Below, piece by piece: positions 3,001-60,014 of a DNA stretch of 64,000 nt (position 1 is the first letter of the stretch; each line of letters starts with the position of its first letter). Both the position numbers and the translations under genes were made by a program. Origin of the DNA: a virus. The notes under the pieces are model-generated. The model saw nothing but the letters and a program-made list of their open reading frames with translations, ran no database searches and had not been told where the DNA came from. The stretch lies in the IMG/VR virus record IMGVR_UViG_3300045988_112906. One strand, written 5' to 3'.

Positions 3001-6000
3001 AGGAAGCTACCAAGCAGAAGATTGAAGAAACTGTATCAGCCTTTGTTCAAGATTGGAGCTATCACGGCACATTTAACGGTCAGCCAATGAATGGCGAACA
3101 GGCTCTGTATGTACAGGATAGCAACGGAAGAACCCTTCTTGTGGGTTCGGGTGATGTCACATTCGACCAGACCAACGGCAGAGCTAAGGAAGGTGTCGGC
3201 GATATGCTCGTATGCTTCGACCCTAACACTAAGGAAATGGTCTATGTGAAAGCTGACGAGGTTACTTTCTTCCAGAATCAGCCTATCGACCAGTTTGCTG
3301 CTGAGTATCGCCAGAGATTGCAGATAAAGAACTCTGAGCCTTACAATCAGGCGGCACAGGAACAGGCGATGCAGGATGCAGCCAAGCCTCAGCAGGAGCA
3401 GGAAGCTCCGCAAGATAATACCACAAAATCGGAAGATAGTACCACAAAATCGGGTGAAAATGGCAAAGATGATACCACATCTGACACCACATCGGGCAAA
3501 AATAATACCACAAATGAGGACTTAGTACCACAAGAGCAGCCACAGCAGGAAAGCGAGGGTATGAAGCTCGAAGATGGCACTCCTGTTCCTTTTGATGCAA
3601 ACGGAGATCCTGATTTCATGAAAATGACTCCAGAGCAGGGGGCTGAGGTCTATAAGATGCTGTTTGAGGAAGATGCGCCAATGCAGATTGACAGCGACAT
3701 CAAGACCTTGGAGAAAGACTTGGAGAAGGTAAAGGCTTCCAAGTATGAAGGCGCTTCTGTTATGGAGAGAGCCGCAGCTCGTAAGAAGGTGAAGGAAGCT
3801 ATCGCACTGGCTGAGACTCAGGTGGAGAAAGCCAAGGCTATCAAGACTGCCATGGAAAAGAAGCCTGAGGCAGAGAATACCGGTGTAGGTACGGCTGAAA
3901 ACGCAGGACAATATGAAAAGGAACGTAAGCAGGGCTATCGTGAAGGTGAAGGCGGCGTTATCTATCATCGTCAGAAGCCAGAGGATGTTGGAGGTGTACG
4001 AGGCAAGGAAGTAACAGTAGCCTTCTCCCCTACCGAGAAAGTTGCAGGTCATGTTAAGCTGGTTGAGCTTGATTCTGTTCAGGCTAGCCACAACAACGGT
4101 CAGCTGAATCTTCTTCATTTCGGTCCAGACTGGCAGCCTAAGGACAGAAGCAGCCAGGCATCAAGAGTTGAGGCTGAGAAGATTGCAGGCAATATTGACC
4201 CAGAGCAGATTACTGGCAGCAACAATGCCTTCATAGGTTCGGCGCCGAGTGTGAACGAAAGACATGAAACCATCCAAGGCAACAACCGTGTGGATGCTTT
4301 GAAAGAAATGTATGCCTCTCACCCTGATCAGGCAGCCAAGTACAAGCAGTGGTTGATTGACCACGCAGCTGAGTTCGGCTTGAATGCTGAGGACATCAAG
4401 AAGATGAAGAAGCCTGTGATTGTAAACGAATTGCCTGTAGATGATGCTACTGCAAAGAAGCTGGGTCAGATGATGGCTAGCGGATTCGAGAGTGGCGGCA
4501 AGCGTATTCCTGAGGTTAGCGCTACCATCAACAAGCTTGGTGACAAGATGGAGAATCTGGCAAACGTTCTTCTTGCCGAGGGAACTCTTGGTGAGGATGC
4601 CAAGCTCAGCGACTTGATTAACCAGAACTCCAAGCGAGCTTTGGAATATCTCAACAAGAACGGATTCATAGACAATACCGAGTATGAGAATCTGGCTACC
4701 GATGTTGTTACCAGAAGACAATGGTTAGAGAATGTGTTGAAGGCTAGTCTGTTTGATGGAAACAGAAAGACAGAAGCCGCATTCAACCGATTGCCAGGCA
4801 ACGCTCAGAAGGCAGTATTGGCAACCTTCATGCGTGACAGAAACAGCAAGGCTGAGGATAGGATCAAGGAGAATATTCAGAAATCCTTTGAGGCTTACAA
4901 TGAATTGAACCAGATTGCAGGGTTCAAGAATGCCAAGAATATCGAGCAGGCAAGGGCTGCAATACAGGCGGAACTGTTAAATGGTTCTAATAATGTGTTT
5001 GGAGAGGCTTCAATTCGAGAAAAATACACTAACTTTGAACTCGAATTAGCAGCATTATACAAGGGTTTGAAAGACCAGAAGAGCCTGACAGGATTGTTTG
5101 GCGAGTTCTACAATGCCGTTCAAGGCAAGATTGGTAAGCAGCTGGATGCTTTCAGTCAGGAAAATGCTGAGCCTTTAGGTAAGGACGAGGCTATAGAAAA
5201 AGTCTTTGGAATCAATAACAAGCAAGATTATGACAGACGAAGAGAAACTGAATCTCCTTCTGAATCTGGAGGAGAAGATGGGGCTGAACCAGCAGGAGAC
5301 AGACCAGCAGAAGCAGGAGAAGGAAGAGTAAATTCTGAGGATGAAGACAAGCCAAATTCAGCAGGCTTTACTCCAAAGGAAATTAGAGATCATCAGGAAA
5401 AACTTGATAGAGCTAAGGAAAAATACGTAAAGGCTTTAAAAGAAGCCAAGAGTGAGAAGGAGATCAAAGCAGCGGAAGGTGAATTTGAGTTTGCGTATAA
5501 AGATCACCAGAATATGAACGGTGTTCTTGACGAGGCATCTGTGGCTGACATGTGGAATAAAGAACTTGAATCAGCAAAGGATTCCGTTAAGAAAGACTCA
5601 AAAGAACCGTCCGCAGATCCTATGGAAGGTTTGAAGCAGGCTGCTGACGCATTCCATGAAGAGCAGAAGCAGAAAGGTGAATTTGCCATGAACTTGAAGA
5701 TTGGCAAGGCTCGACAAGATTATGCTGCCGCCAAGGAAAGCGGTGATGCAGAGCGGACCACCACGGCTGCCAAGGAATTGAAGCATCTCTTAGACGACAG
5801 ATTGAAGCAAGAGGGTAAAGGTCTTGCTGAGAGACAGAAGATTATCGCCGAAGAGATAGGAAAGGCTGAGGCTGAGATAATCGACAAGCCTTGGGAACAG
5901 ATGGACTTGGAGGAACGAGAAGCTGTTTCTTCAAAGAACCCTCTCACGGAATCAGAGATTAACGAACTGACCTCTGAGGAAAATAAAGAATTGATACCTG

Positions 6001-17101: not shown

Positions 17102-17956
17102 TTGGCGGCTGGATTGACCTTCTCGCCTAACGTGAGCGGACAGAAGAATCCTTACTTAGATGCCGTGGGCTGTATGTCGCAGCTTGTGCCGGTGATGGAC
17201 TATCTCGGCAACTCTTCGGCTGGTAAGGAGCCATTGAACGAGACGATCAAGGCTTTCTCTCCTTCTGCCCTATCTCCTTTCGTGGAATGGGAGTTAAATA
17301 CCGACTGGAAGGGTGCGCCAATTGAAAGACGTGGTGACTGGAATGAAAATTCCCCTGCTTGGCAGAGAGCCTACAAGGGCACGCCTGACGGATATATGGC
17401 TGTGAATAAATGGGTGAATGCCCAGACCAACGATGTAGCCAAGGGCAACGAGGATATGCTGGGCAACAGTTTCCTGGATATGGCAACGAACCCTAGTATG
17501 CTGAATCACTACATCGGTGGTATCGGTGGCGGTGCTGCTACGTTTACAGAGCGACTTATCGGTGTTATCAAGCATGGAAACGATACGGAAACCAAGGATA
17601 TTCCTTTCCTTCGATCGCTGCTTTATACGCCTAACGAGCAGAGCAGTTTGCAGAGAACCAAGAGCAAGTGGTATAACTACAAGGATGAAATGGAGAAGAC
17701 GATGGCGAACGTGGACCGCCTGAAATCGAAGAACGTTCCGCTGGATAAGAGAATCACAAATATCGGTGAGTATTATCAATTCCAGAACTCCAAGGAGGCT
17801 GCCAAGGTTAGGGTGATAGAACTGGCTGAGAAGCAGATGAAGCGATGGAAGAAGATGAGGGATAAGGCGAGCGATACCGAAAGCATCAACTTCGCCAATC
17901 AGAATATTGATAGGATCATGATGGATGCGGTGGATGAGCTGGATAGGCTGGAATAA
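17102..17956 (+). CDS. Orphan, diverged copy of the C-terminal ~285 aa of the giant protein (possibly a remnant)
   Basis: Colinear similarity to residues encoded at ~14020-14948: QLVP, DWxGxP, AWQRAY/RWKRAY, NKWxN, YxGGxGG, QRT(K/R)SKWYNY, AVxELDxL. There is no ATG at the boundary (TTG instead). A terminator follows. Confidence 0.6.
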   Translation: MAAGLTFSPNVSGQKNPYLDAVGCMSQLVPVMDYLGNSSAGKEPLNETIKAFSPSALSPFVEWELNTDWKGAPIERRGDWNENSPAWQRAYKGTPDGYMAVNKWVNAQTNDVAKGNEDMLGNSFLDMATNPSMLNHYIGGIGGGAATFTERLIGVIKHGNDTETKDIPFLRSLLYTPNEQSSLQRTKSKWYNYKDEMEKTMANVDRLKSKNVPLDKRITNIGEYYQFQNSKEAAKVRVIELAEKQMKRWKKMRDKASDTESINFANQNIDRIMMDAVDELDRLE

Positions 17957-18422: not shown

Positions 18423-18848
18423 TTACAAAATGTCTTCCCAAGGAATGCCTATGCCATTGAATGACGTATCTGCATAGAAGCGGTTGAAGATGAATCCGTC
18501 CTGCTGGTCCTCATCATCCACGTAGTCTTTGATGAACTGTGCCATCTGTTTTTCCTCTGTGATGGATGATCCGTAGAAATCGGCGAGGCACATGTGTGCG
18601 ATGTAAACAGCATCGTAGCCCACATTATTCTCCAGCACGATATTATTCTTCTTCAGAATGTCCTCAATATCATCCTTACTCATGATGCGGATAGATTTTC
18701 CATTCTTCCGCATCTGCTTGATTGCCCACTCGCACATCTTCTTATTGAAGTGCCAACCATTGTAGCGAAGATAAGCCTTCATTTCCTCTGGCTGATAATC
18801 GTAGGCATTTAATGATTGTCTGTATTTTCTTCCCATAATCTCAATCAA
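18423..18848 (-). CDS. Hypothetical protein
   Basis: 141-aa ORF packed tightly against its neighbours. Confidence 0.65.
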   Translation of the reverse strand: MIEIMGRKYRQSLNAYDYQPEEMKAYLRYNGWHFNKKMCEWAIKQMRKNGKSIRIMSKDDIEDILKKNNIVLENNVGYDAVYIAHMCLADFYGSSITEEKQMAQFIKDYVDDEDQQDGFIFNRFYADTSFNGIGIPWEDIL

Positions 18849-30518: not shown

Positions 30519-32240
30519 CTAGGCAGCTACCAGCTGACCCGAGAAGAGTTCCCATTTACCACCCTTGTAGATGTAAACATTCTCCTTCTCGTACTTGGTT
30601 GTACCTTCGCCACCAGCATTGGTAACCTCGTAATCGGCAGTCAAAGCGACGATCATACCCTCATGTGGAGTCTCAGGCAACCTGCTCATGGAGATAATGT
30701 TGTTGATAACGCCAGATGCGCCAAGAGCAGAAATCTTCGCCTCTGGACCGACAAGAATACTGTTGTAGCCACGGAGTGCTATGCAGTCTGCCTCCCAGTG
30801 CATGTAGCGCTTAGCCAGACGTGGGTCGTAAGCATCCTTAGACAAGTCGTTGGTGCGCTCTTTGCTCTTCTCCTTGACGTAGTGACGAGCACCCTTGAAG
30901 TCAGCACCAATCATGCAGTCTTCCAAATCCATGTAGTCGAGTGTGCTGTCCCAAACGAAGTTGAGTGTACCATAGCTGCACTTGAACTGGTTGAAGGTGA
31001 TATCGAACTCCTTGACGGTAGAGAACATAACATCACGACCCTTAGGAAGCTCAATCTTCATCAGGCGCTCGATAGCGTTCTTGCCGCAGAAGAGATACAT
31101 TTCATCAGACTCAGCAAAGTCTGTAAACATCAGTTTGGCGATAGCGATAAGGTCAGCGAATGTATAGGTGTCACCGATACCATAGGAGTTGGTCAACTGA
31201 TTGATGATACCCTCGGCAGAGTAAGCGTACTCCTGGGCGCCATCCTTGGTTTCCATCAGGAATTTGAGCTTAGTACCATAGAGGTAGCTTCGCTCCTGAC
31301 GGAGCAAGAACTTGGTGAGAGCATCTTCCTTCATGTCGGCAACAGTATGAGGAGCCTTCCTCTTGATCTTCTCGAACTCCTCGGTGAAGATGATAGAGAA
31401 TGCACGCTTCTGCAAGTAAACCTCCTCAGAACGAGGCTGGTAGTTCTCTGGCGGAACATTCATCTGGCTCTCAGAGAGGATGGTGGAAGCGCAGAGAATA
31501 CGACTATTGGCAGGGATAGCAGGGCAACCCATCGTATCGAGCGTTTCGCCAATAGTGCCCTCTGTCTCAGCTGGACCATTGAGCGCCTGCAAAGTAACCT
31601 CGTCCTTTGTCTTCTCAACAACCAGGAGATTCAAGCGACCATTAACCTTGGTCTTTGAACCACGCTCGTAACCAGGCACAGAAGGAACGATCACGGTGCT
31701 ACCCTTGTAGAGAGGAAGAAGCGAACCGGAGAAGTTTGCCTTGGTAAGCTTGATTGTGCCGCCAGCCGCAGCTGCCTCAATCGCCTTGGTAGTCATACCA
31801 TCAAGAGTATCACCACCAACACGAGCGTGCTTCTTCTCGTAGCTGTTACAAGGAACACTCTTGGTAACCTTGCGGATAATCTGCAACAAAGGAGTGCGGA
31901 AAGGGCGATACTTCTCTACCTCACTATCCCAATCCTCTTCGGCAAGACCACCCTTGCGAATCTGGGTAGCAGAAGCCTGTGTGCCGGTTAAGTCCTGACC
32001 TTCGGCTTTGCCGCCTGGCGCCAATCGGTCTGATACGTTTGGATCAACAGGCTCGGTTGCAGCATCAGCCTTAGATGAAGGCTCATGACCCTCGTCACCA
32101 ATCTGTGTAGTCGGTTCAGCCGTATCTGCCATAGCAAGAACGCCGCCGCCAGTTACCACGGCAAGAAGCATCAGAATCATCTTGAAGACGAACTGAGCAC
32201 TTGTGAAATTCTTAATACAATCTTTCTTCATTTTATACAT
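30519..32240 (-). CDS. Major capsid protein (HK97-fold type), with a hydrophobic signal-peptide-like N-terminus
   Basis: 573-aa ORF directly after the scaffold gene. Its overall sequence character and position match phage major capsid proteins. Assignment made by eye. Confidence 0.6.
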   Translation of the reverse strand: MYKMKKDCIKNFTSAQFVFKMILMLLAVVTGGGVLAMADTAEPTTQIGDEGHEPSSKADAATEPVDPNVSDRLAPGGKAEGQDLTGTQASATQIRKGGLAEEDWDSEVEKYRPFRTPLLQIIRKVTKSVPCNSYEKKHARVGGDTLDGMTTKAIEAAAAGGTIKLTKANFSGSLLPLYKGSTVIVPSVPGYERGSKTKVNGRLNLLVVEKTKDEVTLQALNGPAETEGTIGETLDTMGCPAIPANSRILCASTILSESQMNVPPENYQPRSEEVYLQKRAFSIIFTEEFEKIKRKAPHTVADMKEDALTKFLLRQERSYLYGTKLKFLMETKDGAQEYAYSAEGIINQLTNSYGIGDTYTFADLIAIAKLMFTDFAESDEMYLFCGKNAIERLMKIELPKGRDVMFSTVKEFDITFNQFKCSYGTLNFVWDSTLDYMDLEDCMIGADFKGARHYVKEKSKERTNDLSKDAYDPRLAKRYMHWEADCIALRGYNSILVGPEAKISALGASGVINNIISMSRLPETPHEGMIVALTADYEVTNAGGEGTTKYEKENVYIYKGGKWELFSGQLVAA

Positions 32241-32251
32241 ATATTTATGGA

Positions 32252-33055
32252 TTAATTATTGTAAGTGATACCTTCGAAGAAACCGCTCTTTGGAGCCTTC
32301 TTCTGCTTTACAGGCTTGTTGCCAGCGCCCGAAGTAGATAATGCAGGAGGAATACCCTCGTTTGCGGAAGAGCGGACCTTATTCTGAATCTTCTCGTTTC
32401 TAGCCTGCATAGCCGCCTCGTCTCGGGCAGAGGAAATATCAGAATCGTAGTTGTTGGCATTGTGAAGCATCTTCCAAACGTCATCTGGGATGTCACCGCT
32501 CTCCACCTTGTCGTGAATCTCGTAAATCTGCTTCCACATATCCTGAGCATCATCTGGGTAAAGCTTAACCAAGCGTTCGATAGACTTGCGCATATTTTCC
32601 GTAACCCTTTCGGTTGCTTCATTCTGCTCGGCAACTTCCTCATTGTGCTTTGCAAGAATCTCGGCGAGCTTCTTGCCGCCCTCTGGATCTTCGAGCAGAG
32701 CCTTGATGTCGATACCAAAGCGAGCCATCGCATCAAAAGGATTATCCTCTGGATTCTTCTCCATGTCCAATACCCATGCAGCGAGCCACTTATGCTTATC
32801 GAACACCTTAGACAACGCCTTTCCGCTCTCCTCGTATCGTCCGAGCGTATCAGCATCATCGTTCATAGCCGCATAACGAGCTTCCTTGTCCTCGAAATCA
32901 ATGTCGGTATGACGCTTCTTGAATCGGTCGGAGAAAGCCTTACGGTTAGGGCGCTCCTCTACCGGGGGAGTCTCTTCCGCAGCCTGTTCGGGTGAAGGAA
33001 CCTGCTGTTCAGATTCTCCACCTGCATTCATCTGTTCTAATTCTTCCTTTGTCAT
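32252..33055 (-). CDS. Scaffolding protein
   Basis: Acidic, helical 267-aa ORF immediately upstream of the capsid gene and divergent from the portal gene. Confidence 0.55.
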   Translation of the reverse strand: MTKEELEQMNAGGESEQQVPSPEQAAEETPPVEERPNRKAFSDRFKKRHTDIDFEDKEARYAAMNDDADTLGRYEESGKALSKVFDKHKWLAAWVLDMEKNPEDNPFDAMARFGIDIKALLEDPEGGKKLAEILAKHNEEVAEQNEATERVTENMRKSIERLVKLYPDDAQDMWKQIYEIHDKVESGDIPDDVWKMLHNANNYDSDISSARDEAAMQARNEKIQNKVRSSANEGIPPALSTSGAGNKPVKQKKAPKSGFFEGITYNN

Positions 33056-33081: not shown

Positions 33082-33123
33082 CAAAGATGCAAAGAAAATG
33101 CAATTATATTTCCGTGTTTCCGT
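33082..33123 (-). promoter_or_regulatory. Late promoter (leftward): ACGGAAACACGG-N22-CATCTTTG
   Basis: The element lies at 33112-33123 and the box at 33082-33089. The 22-nt spacing equals that of the other two copies. Confidence 0.6.
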
Positions 33124-33139
33124 GACAATAGGCAAACGC

Positions 33140-33181
33140 ACGGAAACACGGCAAAGAAAAAGGGATTTAAGACTATTTTTG
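33140..33181 (+). promoter_or_regulatory. Late promoter (rightward): ACGGAAACACGG-N22-TATTTTTG
   Basis: The element lies at 33140-33151 and the box at 33174-33181, 31 nt before portal ATG 33212. Confidence 0.6.
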
Positions 33182-33211: not shown

Positions 33212-35236
33212 ATGGTTAAGGCGAAATTATTAACACTTAGCAAGGTGATGCCTCAGCGCAACAGATACGATTCCGTGAAGGCTCGAAAGAAGCGGCAGGA
33301 GCACGGAAAGGACTGGGAACTGCTGACCCGATGCAAGAATGCCTGGAATAATCTGAGCGGCGTGAGGGAGACCCGAGCAAGAACGATGAGATACTGCAAC
33401 GGAGACCAATGGAGCGACACCATCAGGGTGTATCATCATGGCTACTGGGAGGAAATGACGGAGCGCACCTATATGGAGCGGCGCAACCAGACCCCTATGA
33501 GCAACAACATCATGATCAGTATCTTGGAATCCATCGCAGGACTCTATGCCAAGCAGGGTACGGAGCCAGTATGCTTCGCTAGGGACAGCAATTCCCGGCA
33601 ACTGAGCGACATGATGAGCGCCACGATGCAGTGCAACTGGCAGAACACCTATATGCAGGACGTACTGAACCACGCTATCAAGGACTATCTGATAGGCGGT
33701 CAGATGTTCGTAAGAGAGTGCTGGGAAGACAGAGACCTTGAAATGCCCGATTCGTGGACAGATGCGATGGAAGCAGACCACATGTTCTTTGAATGCGGCA
33801 GCGACCCACGCCACAATGACGTGAGTCTGATCGGTGTGCTGCACGATGTAAGCAAGGAAGACCTTTATCAGAAATTCGCGCGACAAGAATACGGTTTGAC
33901 GGAAAACGACCTAGACACCATCTTCGATATTCAGGATATGGATGATAGCGGCTACGGCTACGAGTTCAACGAGGAGAAGGCTCTGGAGAACCTCAGCTTC
34001 GACTACAGCAACAAGGGCAAGCACTACGTGAGGGTGATTGAGGTGTGGACCACTGAAACCAAACACAGACTCCAATGCTACGACCCGATTGCTACCACAG
34101 GAACCAGCGCTTACTTCCGGGTGGATATGGAAGATACCGCCATGATAGAGAAGCTACGCAAGGACAATATCAAGCGAAAGCAGCAGTATGATGAAATGGG
34201 CGTGGCAGAAGAAGATAGAGCCTACATTACCAGCAAGGAAATCGCCGATAAGTACTGGTACTTTACCTATATGGCGCCAGACGGAACAATCCTCTGCCAG
34301 GGGGAAACTCCTTATGACTACAAGAGCCATCCATTTACGATGAAACTCTATCCGTACATCAACGGAGAGATTCATCCGTTTATGGCGAACGTAATAGATC
34401 AGCAGAGATACATCAACCGACTGATTGTAATGAACGACATGGCTATCAGAAGCAGCTTCAAGGGATTCAAGATGATTCCGACAACCGTACTGAACGGCAA
34501 GACCAAAGAACAGTTTATGGAAGATGCTATTGAATACGATGGATGGATATTCTATACACCAAAGCGCACGATGCCGCAGGTGAAGCCAGAGATTATCACA
34601 TCGAATGCGGTGAATATCGGAACCAACGAACTCTTGCAGATAGAGCTGAACCTGATACGAGAGGTTACCAACGTGAGCGGAGCTTTGCAGGGCAAGACCC
34701 CTTCGGCAGGAACATCGGCTGCAAGATATGCGCAGGAGAGCCAGAACGCCACCACTTCGCTCTATACCATTCTATCGGATATGGACGTGTTTACGGAGAA
34801 GCTGGCAACCAAGAAGTGTATGACTATCCAGCAGTACTACGAAGACGGAAGAAAGGTTTACGACCGAAACTTCACCCAAGTCTATATGTACGACCGCCTT
34901 TCTGCCCGAGACATCCATTTCAAGATCAGCATCAAGAATGCGGCAGCTACGGCAACCTACAACACGATGCAGAACGATACACTCGACAAGCTTCTTGACA
35001 AGGGCGCTATCAACGTAGTACAGTACTTGCAGAACCTGAATGCACCATTTGCCGACAAGCTTCTTGCCAGCGTGCAGGAACAGCAGGCACAGCTTGAACA
35101 GATGTACCAGCAGCAACAGGCGATGGCTCAGCAGCAGGGCGGCGGACAGGTAGAGAACGGCATCGTACAGGGTGCAGACCAGAACGCAGTGGCTCAGGCT
35201 ATGAGCATGAACAATCAGTATTATCAAACAGCATAA
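33212..35236 (+). CDS. Portal protein
   Basis: 674-aa ORF that is the first gene of the rightward head operon. It has a Q-rich C-terminus. Assigned by size and position. Confidence 0.6.
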   Translation: MVKAKLLTLSKVMPQRNRYDSVKARKKRQEHGKDWELLTRCKNAWNNLSGVRETRARTMRYCNGDQWSDTIRVYHHGYWEEMTERTYMERRNQTPMSNNIMISILESIAGLYAKQGTEPVCFARDSNSRQLSDMMSATMQCNWQNTYMQDVLNHAIKDYLIGGQMFVRECWEDRDLEMPDSWTDAMEADHMFFECGSDPRHNDVSLIGVLHDVSKEDLYQKFARQEYGLTENDLDTIFDIQDMDDSGYGYEFNEEKALENLSFDYSNKGKHYVRVIEVWTTETKHRLQCYDPIATTGTSAYFRVDMEDTAMIEKLRKDNIKRKQQYDEMGVAEEDRAYITSKEIADKYWYFTYMAPDGTILCQGETPYDYKSHPFTMKLYPYINGEIHPFMANVIDQQRYINRLIVMNDMAIRSSFKGFKMIPTTVLNGKTKEQFMEDAIEYDGWIFYTPKRTMPQVKPEIITSNAVNIGTNELLQIELNLIREVTNVSGALQGKTPSAGTSAARYAQESQNATTSLYTILSDMDVFTEKLATKKCMTIQQYYEDGRKVYDRNFTQVYMYDRLSARDIHFKISIKNAAATATYNTMQNDTLDKLLDKGAINVVQYLQNLNAPFADKLLASVQEQQAQLEQMYQQQQAMAQQQGGGQVENGIVQGADQNAVAQAMSMNNQYYQTA

Positions 35237-37148: not shown

Positions 37149-37590
37149 AAAAGAGAAGGAGAAGCTTATGGGAGAGTTTGATGATCTTAAGTCGGTAAGA
37201 GAAATCATGCAGGAGAAGCGAGAGAAGGCGAAGAAGATTCTGCCAGTGAGCAAGAGCGCACAGAAAGAATTTATCCGTGACTTCCTAGCCCGACATCAGG
37301 ATAAGTTTGAGGATTGTATGAACCAGTTGGCGGAATACGATCCAAAAACATACGTTACCATCTATGCCCAGCTTACCAAGCACATGATACCTAAGCAGAG
37401 CGAGATGAGCGTGACCCACGGACTTGACGATGACTTTAAACAGCTCATGGCATTGGGCATGACAACCGTAGAGGACGAAGATGAAGTAAATGTACTAGAT
37501 ATAAGAAAAGCACCCGAGATACAGGATGCGGAATTTGAAGAACTAGACGACTGGGTAGATGGCACAAGTGACAGAAAAGGAAATAGATAA
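37141..37590 (+). CDS. Small acidic protein upstream of and overlapping terL (possible small terminase subunit)
   Basis: Called from position only. The likely start is ATG 37168. Confidence 0.4.
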   Translation: MDKKEKEKLMGEFDDLKSVREIMQEKREKAKKILPVSKSAQKEFIRDFLARHQDKFEDCMNQLAEYDPKTYVTIYAQLTKHMIPKQSEMSVTHGLDDDFKQLMALGMTTVEDEDEVNVLDIRKAPEIQDAEFEELDDWVDGTSDRKGNR

Positions 37591-39673
37591 TCTCGTAACT
37601 GAGAATCAGAAGCGTTACGATGAAATTTATGGCACCTATGACCCTATTACTGGCGAAGGGTGTTATAACTTCGAAAATCGTGTTCTGATAGAGTTGGACG
37701 ATTTCTTCATTCCCAAGATGTGGGTTCCCAAGAAGACAGCCAAGTCTGTTCTGTACAGGGGACTGAGAAAGATGGGTAGTTTGAAGGATTACAATAAATA
37801 TGTTCTACACAAGAAGGATGATGCCCAACATTTCAAGACATTAACCTTTGCCATCTGTAGAACCAGATTTATGGAAGACCCAGAATTTGCACTGTACATG
37901 ACCGACAAGATTGAGGATAAGGTGACGGGTGACATGATTCCGTTTAAGCTGAACTATCCACAAAGATTGCTTCTGAAGATATTTGAGGATTTGCGAACCA
38001 ACAGGAAGGCTATCCGAGTAGTTATCTTGAAAGCCCGTCAGTGGGGAGGCTCTACTTTAACTCAGCTCTATATAAAATGGCTACAGGATTTCCGCAGAGA
38101 TGGCTGGAATGCCATTGTGCTTGCCCAACAGAAGAATACGGCTAAGAAGATTAAGGCGATGTACCGAAAAGCCTTGGAGCATCAGCCGGGCTGGACCATC
38201 GGAAGACCAGGAGTCAAGTTACAATTCTCTCCTTACGAGAACTCGCCTGATGATTTCCAGGTGACAGACGGAATAAGGGCTATAAGAAGAAGTACGCTGA
38301 CCGTGGCATCCTTCGAGAACTTCGATTCCGTGCGTGGTAGCAACTTCCACTGTGCCCACTATTCTGAGGTTGCCTATTGGAAGAAGACCCCAGAGCATGA
38401 TCCTGAGGGTGTGATTTCCTCTATTTCGGGTGGTATCAGAAACCAAGAGGATAACTTGGAGGTATTCGAGAGTACCGGCAAGGGTAACTCTGGCTTCTTC
38501 TATGAGAAATGCCAGTTGGCTATGGACCCAAAGAACAATGATGCCTATTCCTTCCTATTTATCCCTTGCTTCTTCATCGAGCACGATATGGAGGAAGTGA
38601 AGAGTGAACGAGCCTTTGCCAAATGGCTTTTGGAAAACAAGGATAAGAGTACCAACCCGAAGGGCTACCGAGAGACCGGAAAGTTCTTCTGGCGTATGTG
38701 GGAGAAGGGAGCCTGCTTCCAAGCTATCGAGTGGTACAGAAACTTCCGCAACAAGTTTACCACCCATTCCTTCTGTGCTACCGAGGCACCAGTGGATGAG
38801 GAAGATGCTTTCCGTAACTCTGGTAATCTGGTCTTCAACCCCTACTCTATTGATGATTTACAGAAGAAGTACAAGCGTGAGCCAATCTATACCGCCGACA
38901 TCATCATTGACGGCAACAAGAATGAGTCTTCCATCGAAAAGTCGAAGATAAGTATCCGAACAGATGGTGATGGAGACTTGAAGATCTGGGCAGTACCGAA
39001 CTGTCTAAAAGTGGAGAACAGATACTTGGTGAGTGTGGATATTGGCGGTAAATCCTCGACTTCCGACTATACCGTGATGACGGTGATAGACAGATTCGAC
39101 ATTATGCCTACCATCAAGGGAAAGCCGAAGGTGGTGGCAAGATGGAGAGGACACGTAAGACACGACAAGCTGGCGTGGATGGCGGCAGCATTGGCGCATT
39201 ACTACGATGATGCACTGCTGGTAATCGAGAGCAACACGGCAGATAGAGAGAAGAACAACAATACGGAAGGCGACCACTTCGGAAGTATCTTGAACGAGAT
39301 TGCCGACTATTACGACAATCTGTATCAGCGCACCACAAGCCCTGAGGACGTGAGCGATGATGTGCTTGCCAAGTATGGATTCCAGACCAATAAGTTGACG
39401 AAGGGTTGGGTGATTGATAATCTAGAGCAGTTCGTGGATGATATGCTCTGGGATGAGCCAGACCGGGAGATGTATCATGAGCTGAGAATCTACGAGCGGC
39501 ATGATGATGGAAGTCTTGGCAATATCGTGGGCAACGGAAACCATGATGATGTACTGATGAGTACTGCCATCGGGTTGTGGGTAAGCGCCAACGATATGGA
39601 GAAGCCGAAATGGAAACAAAAGGAAAGAACAAGCAGCGGTGGCGACGGCGTTCACTCTGCTGCGAAAATTTAA
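37559..39673 (+). CDS. terL: Terminase large subunit
   Basis: Walker A-like ILKARQWGGST, Walker B/catalytic HYSEVAYW, and the RNaseH-like nuclease motif YLVSVDIGG. Confidence 0.75.
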   Translation: MAQVTEKEIDNLVTENQKRYDEIYGTYDPITGEGCYNFENRVLIELDDFFIPKMWVPKKTAKSVLYRGLRKMGSLKDYNKYVLHKKDDAQHFKTLTFAICRTRFMEDPEFALYMTDKIEDKVTGDMIPFKLNYPQRLLLKIFEDLRTNRKAIRVVILKARQWGGSTLTQLYIKWLQDFRRDGWNAIVLAQQKNTAKKIKAMYRKALEHQPGWTIGRPGVKLQFSPYENSPDDFQVTDGIRAIRRSTLTVASFENFDSVRGSNFHCAHYSEVAYWKKTPEHDPEGVISSISGGIRNQEDNLEVFESTGKGNSGFFYEKCQLAMDPKNNDAYSFLFIPCFFIEHDMEEVKSERAFAKWLLENKDKSTNPKGYRETGKFFWRMWEKGACFQAIEWYRNFRNKFTTHSFCATEAPVDEEDAFRNSGNLVFNPYSIDDLQKKYKREPIYTADIIIDGNKNESSIEKSKISIRTDGDGDLKIWAVPNCLKVENRYLVSVDIGGKSSTSDYTVMTVIDRFDIMPTIKGKPKVVARWRGHVRHDKLAWMAAALAHYYDDALLVIESNTADREKNNNTEGDHFGSILNEIADYYDNLYQRTTSPEDVSDDVLAKYGFQTNKLTKGWVIDNLEQFVDDMLWDEPDREMYHELRIYERHDDGSLGNIVGNGNHDDVLMSTAIGLWVSANDMEKPKWKQKERTSSGGDGVHSAAKI

Positions 39674-42517: not shown

Positions 42518-43003
42518 TTATGCTGAACGTCTCCGTTCTATGTAGATTATAAACCATTCCATCAAATAACCTATGACGAAGCAATAAAGGTGGAGGCATC
42601 CGTTCACGTTATTCAACAGCATCGTGAAGAGGATGAAGGGTCCAGCCTTTCTGATTGCATCTTTCCATCGTCCTGTCCTGCCCCACATCACACCGAAGAC
42701 GGCGAAGAGGAACCCAGACAAACCCATCGTTGGCTCGGTGACGAACATCGGCAGATAACTGGCTGCTACGGCTACCGCAAAAGCCTTGACAGGCGAAATC
42801 CTGCCCTTGATCTGCCAGAGTACCAGCAGATTGATGGCAAGATGAAAGCCATTGACGTGGAAGAAGCTGTACAGTAGATGATTCTCCCAGGGGCATCCGT
42901 GATAGAAGCCTATGTGCCAAGTGCAAAGAATGATGCAGATGAGCGACAGAAACGCCTTCAATCTGAAACTATTCGTGCTTACCATCCCTGTAACCTTTCC
43001 CAT
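42518..43003 (-). CDS. Compact rhomboid-family intramembrane serine protease-like protein (161 aa, about 6 TM helices)
   Basis: FFHVNGFHLAINLLVLW fits HxxxN, TMGLSGFLFAVFG fits GxSG, and GCLHLYCFVIGYL supplies a TM6 His with GxxxG. Confidence 0.6.
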   Translation of the reverse strand: MGKVTGMVSTNSFRLKAFLSLICIILCTWHIGFYHGCPWENHLLYSFFHVNGFHLAINLLVLWQIKGRISPVKAFAVAVAASYLPMFVTEPTMGLSGFLFAVFGVMWGRTGRWKDAIRKAGPFILFTMLLNNVNGCLHLYCFVIGYLMEWFIIYIERRRSA

Positions 43004-43394
43004 ATCGCTTGCAATTATAGAAAATATCCTCTGCAGAACGAGGAGACAGGAAGAATTCGGGGGCTGGCTCTCCTACCAGAAACTGGCAGATGAAATGGAG
43101 CGACTGCCCGATAAACTCCTTCTTCTGAGATACTGCGTTCAATCTATCGAACAGAGAATAGTACATTCTCCTTCTCGGTTCCGTCATGGCATCCACCTCA
43201 GAGAAATCGCCTACCACCATTTTTCTGAGCTTCTCGAATGCCTGCTTCGGATTCACATAATATCTCGGTGCGGGATGAGATACTATCTTCGCCCACGCCT
43301 CCTTTGCGGTGTGGCAGGTGGGTGCTACCTCACGATAAGTCTTCATCAGGTCTTCCCGTTGCTTTTCCGTCAAGCTATAATTGGTTTTCGTCAT
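42969..43394 (-). CDS. Hypothetical protein
   Basis: 141-aa ORF. Its start sits in AAGCGTATG. Confidence 0.6.
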   Translation of the reverse strand: MTKTNYSLTEKQREDLMKTYREVAPTCHTAKEAWAKIVSHPAPRYYVNPKQAFEKLRKMVVGDFSEVDAMTEPRRRMYYSLFDRLNAVSQKKEFIGQSLHFICQFLVGEPAPEFFLSPRSAEDIFYNCKRYGKGYRDGKHE

Positions 43395-43508
43395 ACGCTT
43401 TACTCGTTAAATCGTACTGCAAAGGTACGAATAATCTAGAATACGTCCAAATAAATAATATATTTTAATATTTTGCTCATTTTTTATGGTTTTGTGCAGG
43501 AATATTTT

Positions 43509-43518
43509 TATCTTTGCA
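43509..43518 (+). promoter_or_regulatory. -7 box 10-mer TATCTTTGCA
   Basis: About 80 nt upstream of ATG 43596. Confidence 0.55.
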
Positions 43519-43595: not shown

Positions 43596-44159
43596 ATGAA
43601 AAAGAGTATTAACAACGCTCTTTCAGAAGAAGAGCAAGAGCTGGTTCTGCAAGGTTTGCTGAGCCGCAAAATTTGGAGATTCTATGAACTCCTGGCAAAA
43701 TGGGCACCCATACCGCTGATGCTAGGGCACTGGTATGGAGTTTGGGACTATGGGCGTTACCCAAGACCTACCGTACTTGATACGGCTGATAACGGAAATT
43801 GTATCATCTGGATTTACTTTCTGGCATACGTGTATATGCCAATCTGCATGATACCAGTGAGCTTCTTCTTCAGATACTGCTGGATTTTCCGCATCCCATT
43901 CTTCTACTTCATTGGCATCAATGCCATCAGACTGTATTATCGGCACTGGCTCATCACGCCAGACCAACTGGAGACGCACCATGTATTTATCATTTTTACA
44001 TTAATATTATATGCCTATGGATTTATCAAGATCGCTATCACACGTAGCAAATGCCGCATTTCAGATGTTTCAGAACGGAGAATGCGGTTTTTCGGAAGAA
44101 GAAGAGAGAATCGTACAGAGAAACCTTCTGTACTGGATGGAAAGAAGACATCACTTTGA
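43596..44159 (+). CDS. Multi-pass membrane protein
   Basis: Several hydrophobic helices. It is the first gene after the promoter box. Confidence 0.6.
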   Translation: MKKSINNALSEEEQELVLQGLLSRKIWRFYELLAKWAPIPLMLGHWYGVWDYGRYPRPTVLDTADNGNCIIWIYFLAYVYMPICMIPVSFFFRYCWIFRIPFFYFIGINAIRLYYRHWLITPDQLETHHVFIIFTLILYAYGFIKIAITRSKCRISDVSERRMRFFGRRRENRTEKPSVLDGKKTSL

Positions 44160-44478
44160 TGAGAAGCTGGGAAGAGCCTGCATCGCCAACATCTACTATT
44201 TCAAGGATGATGTGACCAAGGAGTATGCTCCATTCTTCGGTTACGAGGAAATGAAGGAGGAGTACGACAAGCAGGCTTGGATGATTCCCGACTACACGAT
44301 GTGGGATTTTGCCGTGACCATGAACAAGATGTTTGCAGAAAACATTGATGTGATTGGCAAATGGTCGAGAAGCAAGGAGACCCTGAAGAAGAGAATCTCC
44401 GAACTATCAGTGAGTTTCCTCTGCGACGAGTCAACCAATCACCCCACCGATAAAATTTGGTGGTACATGAACAGTTAG
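44011..44478 (+). CDS. Hypothetical protein
   Basis: The ORF overlaps the previous gene. The likely real start is ATG 44065 (MFQNGE...). Confidence 0.55.
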   Translation: MPMDLSRSLSHVANAAFQMFQNGECGFSEEEERIVQRNLLYWMERRHHFDEKLGRACIANIYYFKDDVTKEYAPFFGYEEMKEEYDKQAWMIPDYTMWDFAVTMNKMFAENIDVIGKWSRSKETLKKRISELSVSFLCDESTNHPTDKIWWYMNS

Positions 44479-44520
44479 ACGGAAACACGGAAAAAGCTAT
44501 CTGAAAACCCCTTATCTTTG
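44479..44520 (+). promoter_or_regulatory. Late promoter: ACGGAAACACGG-N22-TATCTTTG, ahead of the lysis cassette
   Basis: The element lies at 44479-44490 and the box at 44513-44520. The architecture is identical to the 33.1-kb pair. Confidence 0.6.
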
Positions 44521-44538
44521 CGCCATTAATCAATATTA

Positions 44539-44997
44539 ATGGTATATATGGCAGAGATTATTCATACATTTTTGCAAGAGCACCTGTACAGATCGGCATT
44601 GGTTATTGCCATCTGCATGGGTGCTCTTATCATTTCTATGGGCGTGGACCTGTTCTTTGGCATCAAGAAAGCGAAGGAGAACGGACTGGCTACGACAAGT
44701 ACAGGATTCAAGAAGACTTGCGACAAGGCGAGGAAATACTTCTCTCCCTTCATGGTGACGGTCTGCATAGACCTGATAGCCTGTACGGTTCTCCCCTTCC
44801 CTGTCTTCTCTATGATATGGGCAGGCTATTGCGTGTTCTGTGAATTTGTAAGCGTAAGAGAGAAGAGCTGGCAGAAGGCTGAGATACGGAAGCAGGAGAA
44901 AACGGTAAGCATTCTTCTGGAGAACAAAGAAGACTTGGCTAGGGCTTTTGCCGAGATTATGAAGGAACTGGAAAAGGAGAAGGAGGGCAAGGTATGA
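44539..44997 (+). CDS. Holin-like membrane protein
   Basis: Two or three TM helices and a charged C-terminal tail. Lies immediately upstream of, and overlaps, the amidase gene. Confidence 0.55.
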   Translation: MVYMAEIIHTFLQEHLYRSALVIAICMGALIISMGVDLFFGIKKAKENGLATTSTGFKKTCDKARKYFSPFMVTVCIDLIACTVLPFPVFSMIWAGYCVFCEFVSVREKSWQKAEIRKQEKTVSILLENKEDLARAFAEIMKELEKEKEGKV

Positions 44998-45416
44998 GAC
45001 TGATTGAGAGAATTTTCGTTCACTGTACTGCCTCTTCTCAGAAATGGGGCGTAAAGGAGCTTTGGGATGAGTTTAAGCGCAAGGGCTGGAAGAACCCCGG
45101 CTATCACTATGTAATTACCAAGGATGGTGGCATACACCAGATGCTGCCGGTAGAAATGGTTAGCAACGGTGTGAAGGGATATAATTCTACTGCCATCAAT
45201 ATTGCCTATGTGGGCGGTATCGACTCGAAGGGAAAGGCTGTAGATAACAGAACCAAGGAGCAGAAGGATGCTCTGGTTACCCTGCTTAGACAGCTGAAAA
45301 AGAAATATCCGAATGCGGCGATTATGGGGCATCGTGACATTTGGGGGGCAGACAAGTCGAAGTGGAAGAAGATGTGCCCTTGTTTTAATGCGAAAGAGGA
45401 ATATAAAAATCTATAG
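44994..45416 (+). CDS. N-acetylmuramoyl-L-alanine amidase endolysin (PGRP / amidase_2 type)
   Basis: IFVHCTAS...GYHYVITKDG...GYNSTAINIAYVGG...MGHRD...CPCF. Confidence 0.8.
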   Translation: MRLIERIFVHCTASSQKWGVKELWDEFKRKGWKNPGYHYVITKDGGIHQMLPVEMVSNGVKGYNSTAINIAYVGGIDSKGKAVDNRTKEQKDALVTLLRQLKKKYPNAAIMGHRDIWGADKSKWKKMCPCFNAKEEYKNL

Positions 45417-45863: not shown

Positions 45864-46175
45864 ATGGGAAAGATTAGCGAAGAACTCCAAATGATAGACT
45901 CGCTCCTGATGGAATTTCATGAGCGGATTCAGTCGGGGCGATGCCTTACCAATAAGCTTCAGAACAAAATGATGCTGAATTTCCTGCATCAGATTGCCAA
46001 CAAGGATGAGCCGATCAGTAAAGCTGAGGCTTGCGGTTATGTCAAAGTTTCCAGGGCTACCTTTGACCGGCTGGTGAAAGAAGGAAGGCTTCCTAAGGGA
46101 CGGAAGCGCAAGGGCTGGACCGAACTTGTTTGGTATGAAAAGGATTTGGATAAGTACATAGATAAGTTGATTTAG
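45864..46175 (+). CDS. Small HTH DNA-binding protein (excisionase / MerR-like)
   Basis: ISKAEACGYVKVSRATFDRLVKEGRLPKGRK. Confidence 0.55.
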   Translation: MGKISEELQMIDSLLMEFHERIQSGRCLTNKLQNKMMLNFLHQIANKDEPISKAEACGYVKVSRATFDRLVKEGRLPKGRKRKGWTELVWYEKDLDKYIDKLI

Positions 46176-52408: not shown

Positions 52409-52840
52409 TTATACCCACCCCTTGTTGGAGTCTATATCCATCTGACAATACTTCTTCGCCAGCTCATCATCCTGCTCGGGAAGCGGAATACCTATGCTGT
52501 TGGCATAGTCGGCAACGTTTCTGATTACTGATGAGGCTTCTGCGGTATCAAGGAAACCAAGGGGCTTGAATCTTGGAAAGCCCTTGGAATCATATTCGCC
52601 AGTCATGAAGATGTGAGGGGCTACATTCTTCTGAATCTCACTGAGAGTCTGATAGAACGTCTGCCCTATCTGTCCGGATAGATACGTGATGATGAAGTTG
52701 AGATAAGCCTTCTGCTGGTCGGTGGCTATAGGATGAAACTTCTTGATTTCCAAACTATAGCCTGCTGACTTAGCCTTCACTATCTCCTTCAATGCAGCCA
52801 TATAGCTGCGAGGATCGTTTAAATTCTTGAATACTGCCAT
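52409..52840 (-). CDS. Early-region hypothetical protein
   Basis: ATG 52840 is preferred; it lies 1 nt after the MBL gene's stop codon. Confidence 0.55.
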   Translation of the reverse strand: MAVFKNLNDPRSYMAALKEIVKAKSAGYSLEIKKFHPIATDQQKAYLNFIITYLSGQIGQTFYQTLSEIQKNVAPHIFMTGEYDSKGFPRFKPLGFLDTAEASSVIRNVADYANSIGIPLPEQDDELAKKYCQMDIDSNKGWV

Positions 52841-52841
52841 A

Positions 52842-53567
52842 TCAAATAAGATTGATGATTTTTCCACTCTTGGCATAGTACGTTGGTACGCCTATTACCT
52901 GTTGGAACTTGTTTACTGCCAGGACTGGATTGAGGTGTCGGGAGGAACCGTGAATGAGGATGATTTGGTGGGCAGACTGCTCTGCCTTGCAATCCTGCAA
53001 CCACGAAACGGCATGTTCGAGACTCATGTGGGATAAGCGAACACGATCAGCCTGACTTCGTGGAGTCTTGCCTTCTGCTACTGCCTTGTCTAGGAGTTCA
53101 TCCGAATAGTTACACTCTGTAAGATAGGTATTGCAACCTTGGATAACGAAATGCAGATTGTAGCAATCCGTGGCAAAGAAGATGGTTCCGATTTCCTTAT
53201 GATGAATCAGATAGCCGTAATTTGGTGCATCCTCATCATGCTTTACAAAAAAAGGTGTGGCACTAAATTCACCAAAACAATGAGTACACTCGCAACCCAA
53301 AGTCCTTACGCAATTAGGGAAATGTTGCGATACGTTGGCGTTGGAATAAACTACAATTCCAGCCTTATCATATTCCTTGATATACTTGGCATGGTCTGAA
53401 TGCCGATGAGAACACAAGCATGCCTCTACCTTACTCGTCTTGTAACCGATAGCTCTCTTCACTTCTTTCAAGGGTATGCCTGCTTCAATCAGCAGGATTT
53501 CTCCCGAATCTGATTGAAGGGCATACGAATTGCCTTTTGATGATGAACCTATAATGATTAGCTTCAT
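52842..53567 (-). CDS. Metallo-beta-lactamase-fold nuclease/hydrolase
   Basis: HRHSDH (the HxHxDH motif). Adjacent to recT. Confidence 0.7.
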   Translation of the reverse strand: MKLIIIGSSSKGNSYALQSDSGEILLIEAGIPLKEVKRAIGYKTSKVEACLCSHRHSDHAKYIKEYDKAGIVVYSNANVSQHFPNCVRTLGCECTHCFGEFSATPFFVKHDEDAPNYGYLIHHKEIGTIFFATDCYNLHFVIQGCNTYLTECNYSDELLDKAVAEGKTPRSQADRVRLSHMSLEHAVSWLQDCKAEQSAHQIILIHGSSRHLNPVLAVNKFQQVIGVPTYYAKSGKIINLI

Positions 53568-58514: not shown

Positions 58515-58624
58515 TTGCAGAAGTGGGACTCGAACCCACGACCAGGTCGCACGGTTGATAAGAATATGTTAAGGGTTTACTCATTATGTTACGTGCCTGC
58601 TCTAACCAACTGAGCTATTCTGCA
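58515..58624 (-). tRNA. tRNA-like gene with canonical acceptor, D and T arms but a 38-40-nt AU-rich sequence in place of the 7-nt anticodon loop. Isotype not assignable.
   Basis: Sense strand: TGCAGAA-TA-GCTC-AGTTGGTTA-GAGC-A-GGCAC-[40 nt]-GTGCG-ACCTGGTC-GTGGG-TTCGAGT-CCCAC-TTCTGCA-A. Confidence 0.75.
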
Positions 58625-59264: not shown

Positions 59265-59474
59265 TTAATCTTCCACAAGTTCGGGGTACTTCTTGACGAG
59301 GATACCACCGAACCTATTGCAAGTAACATTTCGAATATCGACTGCTAACTTGCTGTTTGTCTTATATGCTATTGCAGCGTAAACTGCCGCATTGCAGCAG
59401 CCGACTGACTTAGCTATTTTGCCGATTTTTGATTTTCTAACCAAAATTTTCTGTTTATATACCACTTTATCCAT
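59265..59474 (-). CDS. Small HTH protein (Cro-like position)
   Basis: IGKIAKSVGCCNAAVYAAI looks like an HTH. The gene is divergent from the XRE-type repressor gene. Confidence 0.55.
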   Translation of the reverse strand: MDKVVYKQKILVRKSKIGKIAKSVGCCNAAVYAAIAYKTNSKLAVDIRNVTCNRFGGILVKKYPELVED

Positions 59475-59639: not shown

Positions 59640-60014
59640 ATGGAAGGATTAAGAGACAGAATCAATGTGATAAGAGACCATTACAGACTGTCTAACAGAG
59701 GGTTTGCAGAAGCAATCGGTGCAAAACCAGCTGCTACGAACAACTATTTGAATGGTACAAAGGAGCCGTCATTAGAGTTTGTGGATAGGATTCTGTCCAC
59801 ATACATAGACGTGTCGGCAGATTGGCTTCTACGAGGCAAGGGAACCATGTTCTATGAGGAAGATAAGCCAACCGATGAAGCGCTCTTGAAGGAACTTGCA
59901 GAAGCAAAGGTCAAGCTGCTCGTACAAGAGGGCATCACCAAGGAGCTTCGTGATATGCTCCTTGAGAAGAATAACGGAAAGATAGCCGAAGACCGCAAGA
60001 GTCTTGTAGGCTGA
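59640..60014 (+). CDS. XRE-family HTH repressor (CI-like)
   Basis: LSNRGFAEAIGAKPAATNNYLNGTKEPSLEFVDRIL...ADWLLRGKG. Confidence 0.7.
   Translation: MEGLRDRINVIRDHYRLSNRGFAEAIGAKPAATNNYLNGTKEPSLEFVDRILSTYIDVSADWLLRGKGTMFYEEDKPTDEALLKELAEAKVKLLVQEGITKELRDMLLEKNNGKIAEDRKSLVG

Follow-up and report, generated by a model that had tools for sequence, protein, structure and literature searches.

The stretch of viral DNA analysed here (IMG/VR record IMGVR_UViG_3300045988_112906), called the window below, is 64,000 nucleotides long. Two operons of virion genes diverge from a common intergenic region in it. The leftward operon opens with a scaffold-like gene, which is followed by genes for a major capsid protein and an adaptor of the SU10 type, and the rightward operon opens with a P22-type portal gene and includes the large terminase gene. 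An original prediction, made from the sequence alone, had labelled the flanking genes as a leftward scaffold/capsid operon and a rightward portal operon, and these labels fitted the Pfam and PHROG matches. The features discussed in the text are collected in Table 1.

Table 1. Positions of promoter elements, boxes and genes in the window. Promoters are predicted.
Feature	Position	Strand	Remarks
Upstream element, capsid-side late promoter	33112..33124	-	CCGTGTTTCCGTG; core 10-mer GGAAACACGG at 33121-33112
Upstream element, portal-side late promoter	33139..33151	+	CACGGAAACACGG; core 10-mer at 33142-33151, then CAAAG
-7-type box, scaffold/capsid promoter	33082..33089	-	CATCTTTG; 22 nt 3' of element; 27 nt ahead of ATG at 33055
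-7 box, portal promoter	33174..33181	+	TATTTTTG; 22 nt 3' of element; 30 nt ahead of ATG at 33212
Scaffold-like gene	32252..33055	-	First gene of leftward late operon; phrog_22323
SU10-type major capsid protein	30519..32240	-	After scaffold-like gene; SU10-type adaptor next
P22-type portal	33212..35236	+	First gene of rightward late operon
Large terminase	37559..39673		Rightward operon, five genes beyond portal
Third, solitary copy of the element	44478..44490	+	GACGGAAACACGG; 10-mer exact at 44481-44490; overlaps p153 stop codon
-7 box, lysis-operon late promoter	44513..44520	+	TATCTTTG; 22 nt 3' of element
Holin-like membrane protein	44539..44997	+	Lysis cassette
Amidase_2 endolysin	44994..45416	+	Lysis cassette
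p153, acidic DUF7841-like protein	44017..44478	+	Ends at lysis-promoter element
p141, 141-aa basic protein	42969..43394	-	Candidate reader of the element; covariation with element
Rhomboid-like membrane protein	42518..43003	-	Co-transcribed with p141

The intergenic region holds two copies of a short element and two boxes of the -7 type, one of each for either direction. The copies had been described as perfect reverse complements, each at a fixed distance from its box. Direct reading of the sequence gave the same result: positions 33112-33124 and 33139-33151 are perfect reverse complements, and both boxes start exactly 22 nt past their copy of the element. In a repeat search, the arms reached 16 nt at 94% complementarity (one mismatch), with 14 nt between them. 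The energy of the inverted repeat as a DNA hairpin was strong (z = -5.1) because the sequence is a palindrome, and this palindrome lies upstream of both predicted start sites. The further claim, that each box is followed by GCG, held in part. It was right for the window, where both boxes continue with CG(G/C), but not for the relatives, in which TTTGTAGCC, TTTGCCGA and TTTGCCC were found as well.

A third composite site, which was new relative to the original prediction, was found at 44481-44520, ahead of the lysis operon. The cassette downstream of it encodes the holin-like protein, the endolysin and two more genes. Counted on both strands of the 64-kb window, the core 10-mer GGAAACACGG occurred three times against an expectation of 0.03, and the composite GGAAACACGG-N22-YANNTTTG also occurred three times, against 0.00 expected from 100 shuffles. 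Coincidence of element and box by chance is excluded. Each of the three composite sites in the window is placed 20-30 nt ahead of the gene that opens a virion or lysis operon. The copy at the lysis operon has no inverted partner, and therefore the functional unit is one asymmetric element with one box.

The nearest relative with the same giant polyvalent gene (G020) carried the three sites of the window letter for letter, and a fourth copy was located 4.2 kb upstream of its giant gene (position 4236). From this layout, the fourth promoter of the window phage is therefore expected just left of the window, where it would head the operon containing the giant polyvalent gene. Since two of the four copies of the element stand alone, the inverted repeat between the capsid and portal operons is a by-product of two promoters placed back to back, and has no separate meaning.

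Some additional features were observed around the solitary sites. The fourth promoter (8377 in G5, 63712 in G7 and 4236 in G020) carried extra conserved sequence that the capsid, portal and lysis promoters lacked, namely AAATATTA directly ahead of TATATTTG, followed by CCC, with ATAATTGCAATTATGA at the start codon. At the lysis promoter, a perfect palindrome, CCATTAAT-CAAT-ATTAATGG, was found at 44523-44542 between the -7 box and the start codon of the holin-like gene, and it was largely retained in relatives, for example as CCATTAATCAAAACATTAATGG in G15. This palindrome could be a 5'-UTR hairpin or an operator gating holin expression. No terminator-like site was found on the plus strand between an ordinary promoter at 43509 and the lysis genes, nor after the lysis promoter, and read-through from the upstream operon with p153 into the holin and endolysin genes seems possible.

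Promoters of the primary sigma factor of Bacteroidota combine a TTTG at -33 with a TAnnTTTG box at -7. The late promoters share the -7 box: TATTTTTG (33174) and TATCTTTG (44513) are exact matches to the consensus, and CATCTTTG (33089, minus strand) matches it at 7 of 8 positions. The -33 TTTG is replaced by the phage element. The region 17-22 nt ahead of each of the three boxes contains no TTTG, and CACGG and an A-rich pentamer are found there instead, in agreement with the earlier suggestion that the element occupies the place of the -33 motif. In the Bacteroidota convention, with the box centred at -7, the element would span about -34 to -46. Ordinary promoters are also present in the window, at 43427 (minus), 43509, 59485, 59557 (minus) and 63921. 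In these, TAnnTTTG is followed by CA, not CG, the surroundings are AT-rich, and the element is missing.

With the portal protein as query, 80 viral contigs (L001-L080) were obtained at 82-100% identity. Their portal-upstream regions comprised 58 different sequences, and the divergent layout was common to all of them. A near-identical phage record was searched for with megablast in the phage collection, and no match was obtained. The portal box TATTTTTG was invariant across the 58 sequences. The first base of the capsid box was mostly a non-consensus C (CATYTTTG, CACCTTTG), and GATATTTG was found once. A search for the motif in related phage genomes, which had been proposed as a check, found the 22-nt spacing and the -7 box kept in about 20. 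The 10-mer varied by lineage, and GGAAACACGG, TGGAACACGG, TGGAACACCG, TGGAATACGR, TAAATAACCG, GTGGTATCGG, TCGTGYWATGGG and others were observed. Upstream of the portal gene, the element took forms such as ACGGAAACACGG, GTTGGARCACGG, WTTGGAACACCG, RTTGGAATACGR, TCGTGYWATGGG, GTTAAATAACMG and TATAKGTAMGRG, with both arms changing together. Different elements were carried even by relatives with near-identical structural genes (portal 83-90% identical).

We then compared all late promoters within single genomes, using 13 larger contigs (G3, G5, G7-G11, G13, G15 and G17-G20). The 10-mer of each lineage recurred 22 nt before YAnnTTTG at the capsid, portal and lysis operons, and also at a fourth operon, in which the giant polyvalent gene comes a few genes after the start. 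Three contigs rated 100% complete (G17, G18 and G19) were scanned for their own 10-mer and contained exactly four copies of it, and four copies were also present in G7 and G15, likewise rated complete. Within one genome, the 10-mer was identical or 1-2 bases off at its three or four promoters.

The exception was G13, in which the capsid and lysis promoters had TACTAAsrG and those of the portal and fourth operons had ACAATGGr. The element sites in this genome (L322-L324) are at 18517, 7144, 50006 and 18492. Its two variants may reflect a recent recombinant or degenerate recognition, and G13 fits a model with one factor only if recognition is degenerate (shared AC-A core).

The geometry of the divergent pair was conserved in every lineage, with the two -7 boxes 85-86 bp apart and a gap of 20-21 bp between the two 10-mers. 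The sequence of the central spacer was unrelated between lineages despite the constant distance of the boxes. The constant 85-86-bp distance suggests a constraint on geometry, possibly through contact between the bound factors or polymerases.

The original prediction had regarded the element as a possible recognition site of a phage late activator or an alternative sigma factor. In the comparison of genomes, its place at the head of late operons, its invariant spacing and its concerted, lineage-specific change all support a phage-specific recognition site. The 10-mer is specific to a lineage and uniform within a genome, and this implies that its reader is encoded by the phage. Considered together, the fixed register to the -7 box, the lack of a -33 TTTG, the confinement to late operons and the concerted change suggest a diffusible, phage-encoded specificity factor working with RNA polymerase.

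It had been stated that this factor could not be identified in the window, but a candidate, p141, does lie there. No known late regulator or sigma factor was found among about 35 window ORFs with Pfam and PHROG. The candidate emerged from a covariation test with 12 genomes, five with GGAAACACGG (including the divergent G17) and seven with other 10-mers. The test covered 69 gene families of the window, each present in at least 7 of the 12 genomes. When protein distance was compared with the Hamming distance of the element, p141 ranked first of the 69 families (Spearman rho 0.91, calculated over pairs that are not independent, as the genomes are related). It was also the only one of the 69 that grouped the GGAAACACGG genomes, a motif class named after the data had been seen, with a minimum identity of 0.71 within the class and a maximum of 0.67 between classes. 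In the maximum-likelihood tree of p141, the GGAAACACGG class formed a clade (SH-aLRT 86.7), the similar elements TGGAAYACSG clustered together, and so did TRAATWACSR. By parsimony, the element label changed 8 times on the tree of p141 and 8 times on that of its neighbour p153.

Several other proteins were considered as readers and rejected. For p153, the AU test rejected a GGAAACACGG clade (delta lnL 129, p 2e-79); the protein is acidic and gave no fold match. An HTH_17 protein (45864-46175) has a recognition helix, SRATFDRLV, that is identical across element classes (rho 0.66). Correlation was low for a membrane protein (43596-44159) and for the Cro- and CI-like genes (59265-59474 and 59640-60014). 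A phage sigma factor was rejected because Pfam gave no match to sigma-70 region 2 or 4 among about 30 window ORFs (not all of the small ones). A search for an operator common to the immunity region and the p141 promoter recovered nothing beyond the usual promoter box. Of the Rfam families, just a tRNA matched the window (58515-58624, minus strand, 47 bits).

p141 has a pI of 9.2. Its AlphaFold2 model, built with 66 homologues, was confident, with a pLDDT of 90 and a pTM of 0.81. The predicted structure is all-helical with two tandem repeats, each built in order from two helices, a PAP(R/E)(Y/F)(Y/F) strand and a third helix, and a beta-bridge joins the two strands. The tandem repeat is visible in the sequence too. 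Residues that were constant in the GGAAACACGG class and different elsewhere were found in helix 49-60 (F54) and at 73-76 (PRRR). Foldseek gave no usable match to the model (best E 2.1 in PDB and 1.1 in BFVD), and a profile search against PDB sequences returned nothing. p141 belongs to no Pfam family, and HTH_18 did not match even at E<=10. Its PHROG match was phrog_27246, a family whose function is not assigned. Because there was no recognisable DNA-binding family or structural match, the link between p141 and the element rests on covariation.

Clustering of the p141 family gave 286 clusters at a threshold of 90% identity and 950 at one of 50%. Almost all of its members stand alone and are 130-180 aa long, and no informative fused domain was found in the longer ones. 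The p141 gene has its own promoter of the ordinary host type (TACCTTTG, 43427-43420, minus strand). It is always followed by the rhomboid-like gene, as in the window (42518-43394), in L344 (11953-12866) and in L331 (10001-10940). This gene pair was kept as far as Bacteroides phage BS-TP4; it stands directly after the giant gene in some contigs and beside the terminase in BS-TP4. The layout is reminiscent of a regulator paired with a membrane protein. p141 was kept beside late operons throughout the relatives, BS-TP4 among them.

BS-TP4 (PQ571277) infects B. salyersiae and was isolated in a study that does not mention promoters (PMC12694917). Its homologue of p141 is 27% identical. At its portal, capsid and lysis operons, a AAAAGATAAAC-like box was found 22-23 nt before TAnnTTTG; the boxes of these three promoters are at 17715, 23415 and 37516. 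Therefore, the design reaches well beyond close relatives, with a different box. The p141 homologue of BS-TP4 has a divergent promoter of its own, and the capsid-promoter box overlaps this promoter in its -25 to -38 zone (L345 23340-23460), so that negative autoregulation would be possible.

Prophage copies of p141 were found in Segatella copri, Candidatus Segatella violae, Leyella stercorea and Prevotella MAGs, and matches in bins from outside the Bacteroidota probably reflect faulty binning. The relatives and the window contained an integrase and a CI/Cro-like pair, and the phage is therefore temperate. It is a temperate podophage of Prevotellaceae (Segatella/Prevotella type), with an indirect host assignment.

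Our main reading, to which we give a probability of roughly 60%, is that these are activator-dependent late promoters, read most likely by p141 together with the host polymerase carrying its primary sigma factor. The promoter would consist of a host primary-sigma -7 box, YAnnTTTG, without a usable -33, and a phage-specific element of 10-13 nt followed by an A-rich pentamer. p141 is predicted to bind DNA as a monomer, one asymmetric element per promoter, through its two repeats. Placed at about -40, it would recruit or remodel host RNA polymerase with the primary sigma factor and so replace the missing -33 contact. It would act as an activator and not as a repressor, with transcription starting downstream of the -7 boxes. 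The four operons, namely scaffold/capsid, portal/terminase, lysis and that of the giant polyvalent gene, would be switched on together. Of the two options named in the original prediction, the host-type -7 box makes an activator that works with the primary sigma of the host more likely than a new sigma factor.

A wider version of this reading is more tentative, and we place it somewhat short of even odds. According to it, p141 would define a new, unannotated family of late activators in Bacteroidota phages (950 clusters at 50% identity) with a novel pseudo-dimeric helical DNA-binding fold, and would itself make the upstream-element contact that otherwise belongs to the host primary sigma. The lineages would then represent at least 10 natural orthogonal pairs of protein and box that differ by few residues and bases.

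The promoter logic would be the same if the element were read by another phage protein, which could be encoded at 52409-52876, in a non-orthologous early gene or outside the window. The 52409-52876 protein ranked second of the families (rho 0.88, n=9), and p141 has no known DNA-binding signature. We nevertheless consider this unlikely: the 52409-52876 protein is neutral (pI 6.7), is encoded in a replication/recombination block, and does not group the motif class (minimum 0.54 within the class against a maximum of 0.55 between classes), whereas p141 alone groups the class across the 12 genomes and adjoins the late operons in all relatives up to BS-TP4. A little less probable still is a reader that is sigma-like or replaces sigma domain 4, so that the element would be the true -35-type element of a phage-modified polymerase. 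The spacing is rigid to the single base, CAAAG-N17-TAnnTTTG recalls the spacing of -35 and -10 motifs, and the site is asymmetric, unlike a dimer site, and sits at the -33 place. However, the Pfam scan that found no sigma-70 region 2 or 4 included p141 among its approximately 30 window ORFs, and a protein of 141 aa with a pseudo-symmetric repeat does not look like known sigma factors. The downstream box also has the consensus of the host primary sigma, and this speaks for continued use of host sigma domain 2.

The inverted repeat might instead be a single operator, from which a dimeric or cooperative regulator (repressor or activator) controls both promoters, with its likeness to the solitary copies being secondary. 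The box distance of 85-86 bp and the gap of 20-21 bp, kept in every lineage around a free spacer sequence, agree with such an operator, as do the separation of the two sites by about three helical turns and the overlap in BS-TP4 between the capsid-promoter box and the -35 zone upstream of the p141 homologue. We regard it as improbable, because in every complete genome the lysis and fourth operons are each headed by one non-palindromic copy at the 22-nt spacing, and one copy is therefore the functional unit; the fixed register to the -7 box also points to contact with polymerase, not to occlusion. Least probable of all, and in our opinion very much so, is that a host activator or alternative sigma factor reads the element and that the differences between lineages reflect different hosts. 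In its favour, the host assignment is indirect and prophage copies occur in several Prevotellaceae species. Against it, the class of the element tracks a single protein of the phage but not the remainder of its genome, phages whose portals are 83-90% identical carry different elements, and the 10-mer is confined to late promoters.

A literature search found no publications on late promoters of this type in temperate gut Bacteroidales/Prevotellaceae phages, and late-gene control in these phages is essentially undescribed. If the p141 reading is true, p141 would be the switch that commits abundant gut phages to particle production and lysis, and a simple sequence rule would be available for annotating late operons. 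Matched pairs of activator and promoter could also provide orthogonal expression parts for Bacteroidota, where genetic tools are few. The residues and bases that covary offer a route to a recognition code for a fold without a solved relative. BS-TP4 shares this design and is in culture, which makes bench tests of the idea feasible.

The proposed arrangement can be compared with several known systems. In the middle promoters of T4, a MotA box at -30 is combined with the -10 element of sigma-70, and MotA and AsiA bring about sigma appropriation. The promoters described here are similar in that a host -10-type element is kept and a phage box at a fixed distance replaces the upstream element, at all three sites and in all relatives; this box, like that of MotA, would be read by a phage protein together with the host primary sigma. 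They differ in that neither MotA nor AsiA has a homologue by Pfam and PHROG, and p153, the acidic neighbour, is not congruent with the element. MarA, SoxS and Rob at class II promoters of E. coli bind as monomers through two tandem helical DNA-reading units to an asymmetric box, whose orientation and register over the -35 zone are fixed. The asymmetric site and the tandem repeat of p141 are reminiscent of this class, but p141 is not of the AraC family (no HTH_18), is encoded by a phage and is not stress-regulated. Lambda Q acts at a single late promoter, with its element between -35 and -10 and a terminator downstream, whereas here there are four promoters, the element is upstream of the -35 zone, and no terminator-like site follows the lysis promoter.

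Phage Mu has four late promoters (Plys, PI, PP and Pmom) controlled by the activator C of the Mor/C family (PMC4461284). In both cases, four late promoters would be served by one small phage protein, whose site overlaps the -35 region of promoters that are poor for the host sigma. Mu C is, however, a dimer on a dyad-symmetric site, whereas here a single asymmetric site is present, as seen at 44478-44490 and at the fourth copy. p141 and the other scanned ORFs also have no Mor/C match in Pfam, and the promoters are of the Bacteroidota -7 type. Activator-dependent late promoters of phages are a kind already known; those proposed here have a Bacteroidota format and a candidate activator from an unannotated family.
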